Notes under the pieces: model-generated
Seen by the model: only the letters and a program-made list of their open reading frames with translations
The model's database searches: none
What the model was told of the DNA's origin: nothing
Program-made: the position numbers and the translations under genes
Shown here: positions 31,727-35,975 of the stretch, one piece after another
How positions within the stretch are numbered: position 1 is the stretch's first letter
Layout: each line of letters begins with the position of its first letter
Sequence record: ON871820
Strand: one strand, 5' to 3'
DNA from: Escherichia phage vB_Eco-B1.1
DNA: 64,000 nucleotides

Positions 31727-31899
31727 TCATAGCAAACATTGATTATACCGAAGAAGATTCTAGATATGTTGGAATAATTTATATTACATCAAAAACAGCA
31801 CAAGGTGTTGTTTGCATGGCTGAATTTGATGAATACTTTTTAGATTATGATGATATGATAGAATGGTCTAAAAGATACATTAAAAGGAATCTTTTGTGA
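31693..31899 (+). CDS. hypothetical protein, GTG start
   Basis: SD AAGGA 8 nt before GTG; N-terminus V/M-K-F-S-T-F-DINDEF duplicated at the endonuclease start. Confidence 0.45.
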   Translation: MKFSTFDINDEFIANIDYTEEDSRYVGIIYITSKTAQGVVCMAEFDEYFLDYDDMIEWSKRYIKRNLL

Positions 31900-31931
31900 A
31901 GAATTTTAAACTTGACATTAATGATGAATTT
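31879..31931 (+). repeat. direct repeat copy 2 (at HNH endonuclease start)
   Basis: see copy 1. Confidence 0.8.
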
Positions 31932-32750
31932 TTAATAAAGGAATTAGTTGAAAAATTAGCGTTGAGTGAAGAAGACGCCAAGTCTTACATTAATTTTATT
32001 TCTATGAATTCAACTGTTAAAACTCCAGGTAAAACGGAAGCACACCACGTGCTTCCTAAATCAATATTTCCTGAATATTTAAAATCTACATGGAATTTAG
32101 TTAATTTAAGTCATTTTAATCATTTTAAAGCACACTTCTTATTAGCAAAAGGTAAAAATGGAAAAATGCTAAATGCTTTAAATAGAATGATGTCAGGAAA
32201 AACATATAAAAATTTATCTTTAGCCGAAGTTGATTTAATAGCTGCTGAATATAGTTTTATAAAACAAGATGTAAGTGACACAATATCAAAAAGGCTTCAA
32301 CAGTATTATTCAAATCCGCAAAATAGAAATGCTGCTAGAGAAAGGGCATTAAAATATTTTTCAGTAGCAAAAAATAGGAAAGATAACAAAGAAAGATTAA
32401 ATAATTTTAAAACAAAACAAAAAATTTCAATGGCTTCAAGGGAATGGTTTAATAACGAAGAAAATAAAATTAAACACCAAAAGGCTGTTCGTGCTGCTTT
32501 ATCAAAACCTGAATATAAAATAGCTATATCAAATTCAGTAGCTGCTAGTTGGAAAAATCCGGAGATTAGAAAAGCTCATATAGCATCTAGACGAAAAGGC
32601 TATCATTGGGATAATAAAGATAAATTGTATGAATTGTGGATATCATATAATCGTCCTAAACATGTGATGTTTAGGAAAATGTTAGTTAAGAATGGATATC
32701 CAATAGAGGCTTCATTACAGGCTTTAGTTAAAGAATTTTCTTCATTGTGA
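31896..32750 (+). CDS. free-standing HNH homing endonuclease (mob-like)
   Basis: HNH core AHHVLPKSIFP...NLVNLSHFNHFKAH; NUMOD-like repeats; C-terminal ELWISYNRPKHVMFRKMLVKNGYP motif. Confidence 0.8.
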   Translation: MKNFKLDINDEFLIKELVEKLALSEEDAKSYINFISMNSTVKTPGKTEAHHVLPKSIFPEYLKSTWNLVNLSHFNHFKAHFLLAKGKNGKMLNALNRMMSGKTYKNLSLAEVDLIAAEYSFIKQDVSDTISKRLQQYYSNPQNRNAARERALKYFSVAKNRKDNKERLNNFKTKQKISMASREWFNNEENKIKHQKAVRAALSKPEYKIAISNSVAASWKNPEIRKAHIASRRKGYHWDNKDKLYELWISYNRPKHVMFRKMLVKNGYPIEASLQALVKEFSSL

Positions 32751-32765
32751 ACAATTGGATACAAA

Positions 32766-34448
32766 ATGAAATCATTTAAACTTAATAGAGTAAAATATAA
32801 AAATATAATGTCAGTTGGTCAAAATGGAGTTGACATTCAATTAGATAAGGTTCAAAAAACTCTTATTACTGGACGAAATGGAGGTGGTAAGTCTACTATG
32901 TTAGAAGCCATCACATTTGGGCTTTTTGGCAAGCCATTTCGCGATGTAAAGAAAGGTCAATTAATAAACAGCACAAATAAGAAAGAACTTTTAGTTGAAC
33001 TGTGGATGGAATATGATGAGAAAAAGTATTATATCAAAAGAGGACAAAAACCAAACGTTTTCGAAATCACCGTTAACGGTACACGTCTTAATGAATCTGC
33101 CAGCAGTAAAGATTTCCAAGCAGAATTTGAACAGCTTATCGGAATGTCATATGCCAGTTTCAAGCAGATTGTTGTCCTTGGTACAGCAGGGTATACCCCT
33201 TTCATGGGTTTGTCGACCCCTGCGCGAAGAAAGCTTGTGGAAGACCTGCTCGAGGTAGGAACATTAGCTGAAATGGATAAGCTTAATAAAGCACTAATAC
33301 GTGAATTAAATTCACAAAACCAAGTGCTTGATGTTAAAAAAGATAGTATTATCCAACAAATTAAAATATATAATGATAACGTTGAACGCCAGAAAAAATT
33401 AACTGGTGACAACCTTACTCGTCTGCAAAATATGTATGATGATTTGGCAAAAGAAGCTAGAACGCTAAAATCGGAAATAGAAGAAGCTAATGAAAGATTA
33501 GTTAATATTGTTTTAGATGAAGACCCGACTGATGCATTTAATAAAATCGGTCAAGAAGCAGTTTTAATTAAATCAAAAATTGACTCGTATAATAAAGTCA
33601 TTAATATGTATCACGAAGGTGGATTATGTCCAACCTGTTTGTCACAATTGAGTTCCGGTGATAAAGTTGTTTCTAAAATTAAAGATAAAGTTTCTGAATG
33701 TACGCATTCGTTTGAACAGCTTTCAACACACCGCGATAATTTAAAAGTTCTTGTCGATGAATACCGAGATAATATTAAAACACAACAGTCATTGGCAAAT
33801 GATATTCGCAATAAAAAGCAATCTCTGATCGCAGCAGTAGATAAAGCTAAAAAAGTTAAAGCGGCTATAGAAAAAGCATCTTCTGAGTTTATTGACCATG
33901 CTGATGAAATAGCACTGCTTCAAGAAGAACTTGATAAAATTGTTAAGACAAAAACTAATTTGGTAATGGAAAAATACCACCGAGGAATTTTGACTGATAT
34001 GCTCAAAGATTCTGGTATTAAAGGTGCTATTATTAAAAAGTACATTCCATTATTTAATAAGCAGATTAACCATTATCTTAAAATAATGGAAGCGGATTAT
34101 GTGTTTACATTAGATGAAGAATTTAATGAGACAATTAAATCCCGTGGTCGTGAAGATTTTAGTTATGCTTCATTTAGTGAAGGTGAAAAAGCACGAATTG
34201 ATATTGCTCTTTTATTTACTTGGCGTGATATTGCTTCTATTGTATCTGGTGTTAGTATTAGTACATTAATACTCGATGAAGTGTTTGATGGGTCATTTGA
34301 TGCCGAAGGTATTAAAGGTGTAGCTAATATTATAAATTCAATGAAAAACACTAATGTTTTTATAATTTCACATAAAGACCATGACCCACAAGAATATGGT
34401 CAGCATCTTCAAATGAAGAAAGTTGGTCGATTTACTGTAATGGTTTAA
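32766..34448 (+). CDS. 46: gp46 recombination ATPase (Rad50/SbcC-like)
   Basis: 560 aa; Walker A GRNGGGKST; CPTC zinc hook; signature and Walker B at C-terminus. Confidence 0.92.
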   Translation: MKSFKLNRVKYKNIMSVGQNGVDIQLDKVQKTLITGRNGGGKSTMLEAITFGLFGKPFRDVKKGQLINSTNKKELLVELWMEYDEKKYYIKRGQKPNVFEITVNGTRLNESASSKDFQAEFEQLIGMSYASFKQIVVLGTAGYTPFMGLSTPARRKLVEDLLEVGTLAEMDKLNKALIRELNSQNQVLDVKKDSIIQQIKIYNDNVERQKKLTGDNLTRLQNMYDDLAKEARTLKSEIEEANERLVNIVLDEDPTDAFNKIGQEAVLIKSKIDSYNKVINMYHEGGLCPTCLSQLSSGDKVVSKIKDKVSECTHSFEQLSTHRDNLKVLVDEYRDNIKTQQSLANDIRNKKQSLIAAVDKAKKVKAAIEKASSEFIDHADEIALLQEELDKIVKTKTNLVMEKYHRGILTDMLKDSGIKGAIIKKYIPLFNKQINHYLKIMEADYVFTLDEEFNETIKSRGREDFSYASFSEGEKARIDIALLFTWRDIASIVSGVSISTLILDEVFDGSFDAEGIKGVANIINSMKNTNVFIISHKDHDPQEYGQHLQMKKVGRFTVMV

Positions 34449-34462
34449 TTTATAAGAGATTA

Positions 34463-34486
34463 TGCTTTAATTTATTAGAGTATAAT
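34463..34486 (+). promoter_or_regulatory. middle promoter (MotA box + -10)
   Basis: TGCTTTA 34463-34469, 11-nt gap, TATAAT 34481-34486. Confidence 0.5.
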
Positions 34487-34503
34487 CTCTATGGAGGAAA
34501 AAC

Positions 34504-34692
34504 ATGGAATATTCAACTGGACAGCATCTATTAACTATTCCTGAAATAAAACGATATATTCTGAGAAATAATTTTTCTAATGAAGAGCATATAGTTACTG
34601 AATCTATGCTTAGGAATGCATTTAAAGCAGAATATACAAAAATAATGTCCAATAGAAATGAAGCTTGGACTGTTACTGATTATTATGACTAA
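34504..34692 (+). CDS. hypothetical protein (45.2-like position)
   Basis: SD GGAGGAAAA. Confidence 0.55.
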   Translation: MEYSTGQHLLTIPEIKRYILRNNFSNEEHIVTESMLRNAFKAEYTKIMSNRNEAWTVTDYYD

Positions 34693-34701
34693 AGGTGTAT
34701 T

Positions 34702-35091
34702 ATGACTAAAATTACTGTGAATTATACTGTTGATGTAAAAGATATTCAGCCAAAACACGTGCGTTCTGAATCAAATCCACAAAACCAAAATAAAATTCGT
34801 CGAGCATGGGTTTTGTCTCTTTCTGATAATGCAATGGAAGTTATTCAGAACAAAATTAAATCTGCACCTGCTCGTCATGCGTATTATGAAGCTATCGATC
34901 GTGAAGTAAGTAATAAATGGATTGAACTAATGCGCAAACATACTGCAGAATCCCTAAACGCCGGTGCTAAATTTATTATGACTTCATGTGGTGAACGCCT
35001 TGAAGATGATTATTGCGGTAATGCAGATGAACGTCTAATTGTTGCTGCTCAAATTGTTGCGGAAACAATTGCGGCTGATTTTAATAAATGA
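34702..35091 (+). CDS. rpbA: RNA polymerase-binding protein RpbA
   Basis: 129 aa at the T4 rpbA position upstream of gene 45. Confidence 0.65.
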
Positions 35092-35975
35092 ATTTAGTAT
35101 ATCTTATTAGCTTTCCAGAACGGGAAGCTAAAAATATTTTTCCATGTTATTATATAGGTTCGAAAATTGACGCAATTTTCGATGGAACAAATATAATTGA
35201 TTCAGCTGGAAAGATTTATACTGGAAGCGTGTCATCGAGTTATAGCGATGAATATTTTGAGCTTATTAAAACCACTAAATATACCGTCAAAATTTTAGCT
35301 GAAACTATATTAGATCCAAGAAAATTGGAAAGATTTTTTCAATTAAAAGTTAAAGCAAAAAGTAATATAAAATATTTTAATAAAGCATACGCAGATGAAA
35401 ATACTTTAATTGGCGCTAAAGGATATGGAATATATAAAAATGTTTTAACTGGAAAAATTGTAAAGCTTTCGCAATCTGAAATTACGCCCGATTATGTTGG
35501 TATTCGTAAAGGTTACAAACATAGTTCTGACGTAAAATACAAAATATCTAATTCAATGAAGAATCACTGGACCGATGAGAAAAAGCTTAAACTTTCAAAT
35601 AAGATGAAATTGAAATATCTTGATTGTAGTTATGCTAAAAAGTTTAGTGATATAATGAATTCAGAAAGTGTAAAATCAAAAATTTCTAAATCTCAAAAAG
35701 AGTTATGGAATAATGCTGAAAGAAGACAGAGAGCTTCAATTCAAGCAACTGTTAGAAATAATTCACCGGAATTCAAATCAAAATTTAGAAAATCTAAAGC
35801 TAGAGGAACTTGGATTGAACATGAAGATGAATTAAAATCTTTATGGCATGCTTACGGAAAACCGAGTTATAATAAATTTCGTAAAATTGCAGTAGCTAAT
35901 GGGTTTAACGACGAATCTTATCAGGGTGCTGTACGGTCCTGGTCTAACTATTATGTAAATAGGAAATTGAAATGA
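35088..35975 (+). CDS. free-standing GIY-YIG homing endonuclease (seg-like)
   Basis: N-terminal LVYLISFPE...CYYIGSK; C-terminal [26 protein letters not shown] motif; ATGA overlaps with rpbA and 45. Confidence 0.75.

Follow-up and report, generated by a model that had tools for sequence, protein, structure and literature searches.

The 64,000-nucleotide stretch of Escherichia phage vB_Eco-B1.1 DNA analyzed here (sequence record ON871820; hereafter the window) carries two intact open reading frames, ORF1 (31896-32750, + strand; 284 amino acids (aa), GTG start) and ORF2 (35088-35975, + strand; 295 aa, ATG start), which are very probably free-standing homing endonuclease genes (HEGs) of the T4 Mob (HNH) and Seg (GIY-YIG) kind: promoter-less, located at the 5' boundary of essential genes and spreading by intronless homing. 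Their sequences place them, unremarkably, within two nuclease families known from T4, Mob and Seg. Both share a C-terminal module with a third gene, ORF3 (50547-51197, + strand; 216 aa, GTG start, intact), located between genes 61 and 56; each of the three borders immediately on the 5' end of an essential gene of replication or recombination. In T4 (NC_000866), neither the ORF1 nor the ORF2 site is occupied by a gene: 46.1 overlaps 46, and the spacer between rpbA and 45 measures 55 nucleotides (nt). This agrees with an earlier reading made from the letters of the window alone (the sequence-only reading), according to which T4 has no endonuclease genes at these two positions. For ORF1 and ORF2, activity of the enzymes and their cleavage sites are inferred, as are promoter function and the binding of DNA through the module.

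ORF1 within the 5' end of gene 46

The sequence-only reading had placed an HNH endonuclease upstream of gene 46, and this assignment is borne out by the intact frame, the presence of the HNH motif and matches to the T4 Mob proteins (MobD, E 2e-17, 30% identity over 243 aa; MobB, 1.5e-7; MobC, 6e-7; MobE, 3e-4). Among the PHROG families, ORF1 matches 655 ('homing endonuclease', E 8e-45) and 12434 ('HNH endonuclease', E 4e-15). Its HNH catalytic core (32034-32147, + strand; residues 47-84, TEAHHVLP...WNLVNLSHFNHFKAH) has the His-His...Asn...His spacing characteristic of the motif, and the pattern E-HH-x2-P...N-x-V-x-L...H-x3-H is found in both ORF1 and ORF3. The residues E48, H50, H51, P54, N67, V69, L71, H76, and H80 are invariant in an alignment of eight sequences reaching down to 27% identity. 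In the AlphaFold2 (AF2) model, this region forms a strand (47-51), a second strand (68-72) and a helix (73-84), with a block-mean predicted local distance difference test score (pLDDT) of ~70-90. Profile alignment of the motif onto the HNH motif of McrA (6ghc) was weak (E 0.5). Phmmer searches of ORF1 and ORF2 against PDB sequences returned only noise, and an NCBIfam search gave nothing useful for either.

The essential gene 46 (32766-34448, + strand), which encodes an SbcC/Rad50-like subunit of a recombination nuclease, follows directly 3' of ORF1. The GTG start of ORF1 overlaps the stop of 46.1 (GTGA), and alignment with T4 identifies its first six codons (31896-31913, + strand; GTGAAGAATTTTAAACTT) as the first six codons of gene 46. 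As ORF1 opens with these 18 nt of gene 46, it uses the ribosome site of that gene and the GTGA overlap with 46.1; to judge from the alignment, the translation start of gene 46 is taken over by ORF1. A rebuilt gene 46 start (32766-32783, + strand; ATGAAATCATTTAAACTT) is located at the 3' end of the 870-bp insert. The insertion point of ORF1 thus follows codon 6 of gene 46, and codons 1-6 are present twice, so that gp46 is still made full-length with a single residue changed (N3S). The two copies (31896-31913 and 32766-32783) form an imperfect direct repeat, identical at 9 of its 18 nt, and recombination within it would restore the exact T4 sequence. The same junction is present in all eight ORF1-bearing genomes examined (window included). 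The C-terminal module of ORF1 occupies residues 236-284 (32601-32747, + strand; hmmsearch with a 75-sequence module profile, E 9e-22).

ORF2 between rpbA and gene 45

The proposed GIY-YIG endonuclease between rpbA (34702-35091) and gene 45 (35972-36658) also stood up: the frame is intact, and over the first 116 residues the protein shares 36% identity with T4 SegG (E 5e-16). Matches to PHROG families 655 (E 7e-32) and 7504 (E 4e-17) were found as well. Within the SegG-like nuclease domain (residues 1-100; 35088-35387, + strand), a GIY-(10-11)-YIG-type motif is accompanied by the Glu and Asn residues: Y5, Y21-Y22-I23-G24, E81, and N98 are invariant in seven homologues and align with the corresponding positions of the Seg proteins (SegA-G) and I-TevI. 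The segment containing Arg27 of I-TevI is replaced in ORF2, as it is in SegA-G. The AF2 model of residues 1-100 has the GIY-YIG fold and is mostly confident (block-mean pLDDT 73-93).

The remainder of the protein is of the Mob type. Residues 119-295 (35442-35972, + strand) are homologous to residues 98-282 of ORF1 and end in the shared module (residues 241-295; 35808-35972, + strand; E 3e-19 with the module hidden Markov model, HMM), for which AF2 predicts helices at 246-255, 261-270, and 276-290. Since a SegG-type nuclease is joined to a Mob-type tail common to ORF1, ORF3, MobD, and SegA, ORF2 constitutes a domain-swap hybrid.

ORF2 overlaps its neighbors at both ends, its ATG with the stop of rpbA (ATGA) and its own stop with the ATG of gene 45 (ATGA). 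Its sequence stands in place of the final rpbA codon, the spacer between rpbA and 45, and the initial ~30 nt of gene 45. Compared with the T4-type allele of empty sites, the ORF2-linked 5' end of gene 45 (35972-36010, + strand; ATGAAATTATCTAAAGACACACTGAATATTTTGAAAAAT) has 13 differences in 39 positions. The ORF2 junction is identical in the six ORF2-bearing genomes examined.

The shared C-terminal module

A C-terminal motif common to ORF1, ORF2 and the HNH frame at 50547 had been noted by the sequence-only reading; it survives alignment, with E-values from 2e-4 to 3e-11. In BLASTP comparisons, residues 119-286 of ORF2 match residues 98-282 of ORF1 (27% identity, E 3e-11), which extends the similarity beyond the last ~45 residues to the whole C-terminal half. 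Residues 247-285 of ORF2 match residues 173-211 of ORF3 (E 2e-4), and ORF1 matches ORF3 over the full length (E 9e-13). Against the six-frame translation of the window, the motif HMM recovers these three ORFs only (E ~1e-30; next best 0.12).

A three-sequence profile of the C-terminal halves, searched against 1.84 billion cluster representatives, retrieved 112 proteins at E<=1e-3. Together with the homologues found earlier, the profile matches place the terminal module of ~50 aa in at least 111 protein clusters, some with two or three tandem copies. Classified by motif, the module proteins include at least 40 with an HNH and at least 11 with a GIY-YIG head; the Pfam matches among them comprise NUMOD3 (36), HNH (16), SegE_GIY-YIG (8), GIY-YIG (6), and DUF559 (1). 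The consensus of the 75-sequence alignment reads R-x4-W-x2-YDELY-x-LW-x5-P-x4-FR-x-IAV-x2-GYPD-x2-Y-x2-MV-x2-F, in which the columns W, L, W, F, G, P, Y, and F hardly vary. In T4, the module is present in MobD (residues 199-254, E 4e-23) and SegA (residues 170-216, E 1e-15), and SegF has its first half only. As MobD and SegA already carry it, the occurrence of one module on different nucleases is a property of known families. The sequence-only reading had proposed a single DNA-binding module combined with different nuclease domains: the sharing between HNH and GIY-YIG heads stands, both here and in T4, and DNA binding is predicted from knowledge of the families. The C-terminal regions of the Mob proteins have been described as 'presumably the DNA-binding domain' (PMC2988022).

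No matching family was found for the module in Pfam. Comparisons by hhalign with I-TevI and with the NUMOD1-like tail of P0009 revealed no relation, and the module is therefore not called an I-TevI-type helix-turn-helix; in the closest outgroup of ORF1 (P0009-P0011), a NUMOD1-like tail stands in place of the module. A local match of the module ('FKRMGVKAGYPD') to a VRR-NUC protein (E 0.74) was set aside as chance. Tentatively, the module might represent an uncurated DNA-binding unit, other than NUMOD1/3/4 or the helix-turn-helix of I-TevI, that is shuffled between the HNH and GIY-YIG heads of phage homing endonucleases and whose coding sequence in the ORF2 lineage would double as a MotA-dependent middle promoter of gene 45. 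If so, the promoter inside the module would tie the retention of a selfish gene to expression of the sliding clamp (gene 45). A module so widespread and absent from Pfam could also improve the annotation of phage 'hypothetical proteins' that are homing endonucleases.

Candidate expression signals

ORF1 and ORF2 are promoter-less cassettes, each overlapping the upstream ORF. Such overlap has been described for several seg and mob genes (PMC2988022). No match to the T4 late-promoter consensus TATAAATA was found near ORF1 or ORF2. A terminator-like hairpin located 20 nt inside ORF2 (35107-35131, + strand; 10-bp stem followed by a T-rich run, z -2.5) may limit expression of the gene, and internal terminators in the 5' coding regions have been reported for mobE and segF (PMC2988022). 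The hairpin is not conserved in the homologue of ORF2 from Mosigvirus AV109; this makes its function uncertain and rules it out as a conserved regulatory element.

Within the region of ORF2 encoding the module, a candidate MotA-type middle promoter for gene 45 (35849-35873, + strand; TGCTTAC-N12-TATAAT) is located 123 nt 5' of the gene 45 ATG. At the same position, the AV109 homologue has ATTGCTTTA-N12-TATATT. The T4 spacer displaced by ORF2 contains ATTGCTTTA-N12-TAAAAT, which we take to be a MotA-type middle promoter on the strength of the consensus. The loose MotA/-10 pattern is enriched in the window (27 matches vs 15.6 +/- 4 expected), and several + strand matches precede gene starts, e.g., those of a-gt (match at 29006), 45.2 (34463), and ORF3 (50490). 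Given this enrichment and the AV109 counterpart at the same position, it is plausible that a replacement middle promoter for gene 45 is embedded in ORF2. Promoters of gene 32 embedded in segG have been considered to favor retention of that endonuclease gene (PMC2988022).

Distribution among relatives and flanking haplotypes

The window belongs to a Tequatrovirus (T4-like phage), and its + strand is the direction of early transcription. The genes are arranged in the order a-gt (29054-30256), 47, 46.2, 46.1, ORF1, 46, 45.2, rpbA, ORF2, 45, 44, and 62. The 9-kb stretch around ORF1 and ORF2 has matches in 852 phage records, the top one being Escherichia phage EC121 (97.7% identity, 100% of the query). 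No single record covers the whole span 29000-53000; EC121 reaches 97% coverage at 96.6% identity. In the following, database counts refer to ~510 Tequatrovirus records, and flanks and haplotypes were compared in a small sample of 17 genomes.

ORF1 and ORF2 are not new to sequence databases, where they occur in 70 and 24 records, respectively. The copies of ORF1 are 98-100% identical at the nucleotide level and include those of T6, T2, RB68, and PP01; the gene is missing from ~440 of 517 Tequatrovirus records. The synteny comparison proposed by the sequence-only reading, with T4, T2, T6, and the RB genomes, shows T4 without either gene and ORF1 intact in T6, frameshifted in T2, and truncated in RB68. 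The T2 copy (L010 616-1468) is a pseudogene owing to a 2-nt deletion (nt 609-610), present in all five independent T2 records, which separates the HNH part from the DNA-binding tail; the RB68 copy (P0008) ends at 208 aa. One 'other HNH' gene each is listed for T2 and T6, with no position given (Petrov et al. 2010, PMC2993671, Table 5), and this entry is probably ORF1. ORF2 is missing from ~479 of the ~507 records containing the region, and Mosigvirus AV109 has a 65%-identical homologue at the same rpbA/45 junction. Both genes are thus present or absent at one precise site each. Besides the window, EC121, GRNsp7, and N2 carry both.

Carriers of ORF1 share a downstream flank that is T4-like except for GGAGTT at ~+50 of gene 46. 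Empty sites are of two types: the T4-type allele (~68 records) has GGGATT at ~+50, and the RB6-type allele (~370 records) has ~14 substitutions within nt 18-65. The RB6-type patch (window 32783-32830 and homologous positions in L013-L019), found in about three quarters of the Tequatrovirus records, adjoins the insertion point of ORF1, entails four amino-acid changes and lies in a region otherwise ~97% identical. Annotations of RB6-type genomes place the gene 46 start at a downstream ATG.

The ORF2-linked 5' end of gene 45 was found in all six carriers examined, and 10 of the 11 genomes devoid of ORF2 have the T4 type. The remaining one, RPN226, combines the ORF2-linked 5' end with a slightly altered spacer (L012 ~3812-3910), which points to an allele that is resistant by nature or else to one from which the HEG was precisely lost. 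IMG/VR, scanned by exact pattern for the ORF2-linked 5' end of gene 45, yielded zero matches. The upstream tract ends at variable points among ORF2 carriers, the window being T4-type up to 6 nt from ORF2 and four other genomes having four linked single-nucleotide polymorphisms. In the 3' half of gene 46, T2 (with ORF1) and S1P5QW (with ORF2) fall into a haplogroup ~8% diverged from the other carriers. The presence of either gene is therefore incongruent with the flanking haplotypes, and the immediate flanks are linked to it.

In the Serratia phage PhiZZ30, the space between 46 and 45.2 holds a third and unrelated gene for a putative homing endonuclease (717 nt; L009 2297-3013, minus strand), which marks the 46-45 interval as a hot spot. 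The 3' half of gene 46 beside this insert is ~7% diverged from both common haplogroups, and inserts of the same size occur in OES_C-3 and vB_ECOLIGBLB0003.

Proposed homing and alternative explanations

The proposed course of events is as follows. Each protein would consist of an N-terminal nuclease and a string of small DNA-binding units, i.e., NUMOD3-like helical repeats followed by the three-helix module of ~50 aa, whose consensus can be written W-x3-YDEL-x2-LW-x5-P-x4-FR-x-IAV-x-NGYP-x3-Y-x2-MV-x2-F. ORF1 would have landed after codon 6 of gene 46, taken its start and supplied a rebuilt one at its own 3' end, and ORF2 would have replaced the rpbA-45 spacer along with the first ~30 nt of gene 45, probably bringing a middle promoter. 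Translation of both would be coupled to that of the upstream gene. In a mixed infection, the enzyme would nick or cut the allele without the endonuclease gene, within or close to the 5' end of gene 46 or 45, and the break would be repaired by phage recombination with the endonuclease-bearing genome as a template. The endonuclease gene and its flanks would thereby be copied into the recipient, an intronless homing seen genetically as localized marker exclusion.

Support for homing comes from the empty sites in T4 and most other Tequatrovirus records, the fixed junctions, the linkage of near flanks, the lack of such linkage for distal haplotypes, the conserved site in AV109 and the decayed copies. 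The flank differences between carriers and empty sites are consistent with altered target sites. Overlap with the preceding ORF, the terminator-like hairpin in the 5' part of ORF2 and its embedded promoter candidate also resemble the published layout of T4 seg and mob genes (PMC2988022). Taken together, the sequence patterns fit homing with variable co-conversion and occasional decay. Marker exclusion is predicted from knowledge of the families combined with the population patterns.

Several observations weigh on the other side. The Pfam HNH family was not reached by ORF1 (no match at E<=0.1), and ORF3 scored 14.7 bits vs a cut-off of 21.4; this lowers the certainty of the ORF1 assignment only slightly, because HNH domains of T4-type Mob proteins are divergent. 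Similarly, ORF2 has no match to Pfam GIY-YIG or SegE_GIY-YIG at E<=0.1, a miss made good by homology to the experimentally active SegG. The module profile found nothing significant among PDB sequences, i.e., no detectable kinship to a solved DNA-binding domain, and AF2 confidence for the module is low to moderate (block-mean pLDDT ~52-73 in ORF2 and <50 in ORF1). No activity reports on the ORF1 or ORF2 proteins were found in the searchable literature. In published cases, the cleavage site of a free-standing endonuclease is often hundreds of bp away from the gene itself, and the real targets may therefore lie elsewhere. For ORF1, the sequences cannot single out the target between the T4-type and RB6-type alleles of gene 46. 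Finally, RPN226 indicates that the ORF2-linked allele of gene 45 is not exclusively a product of homing.

The genes might instead be retained mainly through a cis dependence of the phage, the proteins being inactive or weakly active relics or DNA-binding regulators; I-TevI, for example, also acts as an autorepressor. In favor of this, the only translation start region of gene 46 is the rebuilt one in the ORF1 insert, and ORF2 carries the ribosome site of gene 45, overlaps its ATG and holds the position-conserved MotA-box/-10 candidate. Moreover, the frameshifted ORF1 copies of T2 and RB68 persist without loss of DNA, and embedded promoters favoring retention are known for segG and gene 32 (PMC2988022). 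However, the catalytic residues are intact in the window copies and invariant down to homologues of 57-65% identity, which a relic would not keep, and spread into unrelated flanking haplotypes needs an active mechanism of mobility. Retention of this kind as the main explanation is unlikely.

It is quite improbable that the two genes serve interference competition to the benefit of the host phage at the essential genes 46 and 45, or that the pair forms a 'HEG island' moving 46-45.2-rpbA as cargo. Both genes are indeed placed at essential genes, and EC121, GRNsp7, and N2, three distinct phages, also carry both. Interference between co-infecting phages through an intron endonuclease has been demonstrated (PMC11620839). 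HEG islands have been proposed as two HEGs bracketing an essential cargo that is unusually conserved between dissimilar phages (Barth et al. 2023, PMC10448857). The window and the three other phages have the bracketing arrangement, but most carriers have one gene only (70 and 24 records, ~3 phages with both), and the 46-45.2-rpbA segment is as mosaic as elsewhere, being no more conserved in carriers than in non-carriers. As the cargo is not specially conserved, the island is not supported.

That the C-terminal motif reflects chance or compositional similarity of K/N-rich, AT-rich-encoded phage proteins with a low-complexity middle region has a vanishingly small probability and is refuted by the pairwise E-values (2e-4 to 3e-11), the 112 proteins retrieved from 1.84 billion, the nearly invariant columns in 75 sequences and the restriction of the motif to three ORFs of the window.

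If homing is accepted, ORF1 and ORF2 add two further endonucleases with defined empty-site alleles to the T-even system of intronless homing and marker exclusion. It is predicted that carriers locally exclude T4 markers around 46 and 45, i.e., in the direction opposite to the usual exclusion of T2 by T4.

ORF3 and other endonuclease loci of the window

ORF3 is an HNH homing endonuclease gene that resembles MobE and MobD and encodes NUMOD3 repeats as well as the module (residues 167-216). It matches MobD (34%, E 4e-33), and identity to MobE reaches 63% over the first 82 residues. Its stop lies 1 nt before the gene 56 ATG, and the gene occupies the position of T4 dam. In the 61-56 interval (window 50276-51197; cf. 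T4 16846-17625), dam is replaced by a 66-aa hydrophobic minus-strand ORF (50276-50476) and ORF3; a tblastn search found no match to the dam methyltransferase anywhere in the 64-kb window. A strong MotA-box/-10 candidate (50490-50513, TGCTTTA-N11-TATAAT) is located just 5' of ORF3. Gene 56 itself, 76.8% identical to that of T4, is the most diverged aligned block in the comparison, which fits the region being a known SegF target.

At the place of T4 b-gt and segA (window 43086-44566), a Seg-like GIY-YIG ORF of 213 aa is 42% identical to the N-terminus of SegA and has NUMOD3-like repeats and a Cys-rich end. A second, unrelated ORF of 280 aa in this region possibly encodes another DNA-modification enzyme. 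In the nrdD region (22471-23238), an ORF resembles T4 I-TevII (55.6% aa identity), which is suggestive of a diverged endonuclease of an nrdD intron. The T4 genes mobC, mobB, and segF are missing from the window, seemingly cleanly (BLAST-block gaps at 24544-24558, 29038-29063, and 51680-51762).

Comparison with known homing endonucleases

Much of what is described here is already known: ORF1 is present in T2 and T6, ORF2 in two dozen genomes, and the tail in T4 MobD and SegA. The mildly new elements are the precise layout of the junctions, including the duplication of six codons of gene 46, a widespread tail-end module absent from Pfam, and the possible use of the 3' end of ORF2 as a promoter.

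The closest T4 counterpart of ORF1 and ORF3 is MobD, which shares their HNH head, helical repeat middle and ~50-aa module over the whole length. The sites differ, mobD being located at nrdC.11/mobD.1, ORF1 inside the 5' end of gene 46 and ORF3 upstream of gene 56. Unlike MobD, ORF1 has an extra N-terminal helical extension of ~45 aa, which opens with the six residues of gp46. MobD is listed as a free-standing HNH endonuclease gene whose activity was not determined (PMC2988022, Table 1). T4 MobE resembles ORF3 as a free-standing HNH gene with its start overlapping the upstream gene, whereas the protein (141 aa) has no C-terminal module and the gene occupies another site. MobE is an HNH nickase with nrdB as its target (PMC2790892).

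In the details of its position, ORF1 can be set beside the coding-sequence insertions of Aeh1 mobE and T4 mobA. As in these cases, a coding sequence is interrupted and not a spacer; unlike in these cases, gene 46 is not split into two functional pieces. Both are known as HEG insertions within coding sequences (PMC2988022).

For ORF2, the relevant comparisons are SegG, SegF, and SegA. SegG shares with it the variant motifs VY...YYIGSK...Y-x-GS...ER...FN, and both genes lie directly 5' of an essential replication gene, segG with promoters of gene 32 and ORF2 with the promoter candidate of gene 45. The C-terminal halves are unrelated, and the sites differ (59/32 vs rpbA/45). SegG cleaves T2 gene 32, with marker exclusion and co-conversion (PMC2988022). 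The joining of a GIY-YIG head to a Mob-like tail has a published precedent in SegF, termed a 'hybrid endonuclease', which cleaves T2 gene 56 (PMC2988022). SegF also matches the middle region of ORF1 (E 2e-4) and has an internal 5' terminator, as ORF2 may have. SegA of T4, which cuts uvsX, is a second precedent for the same combination. The nuclease domains of SegF and SegA belong to the SegA-F subgroup, whereas that of ORF2 belongs to the SegG subgroup, and ORF2 thus represents a clean natural example of a domain swap, with a SegG-type nuclease on a Mob-type DNA-binding tail.

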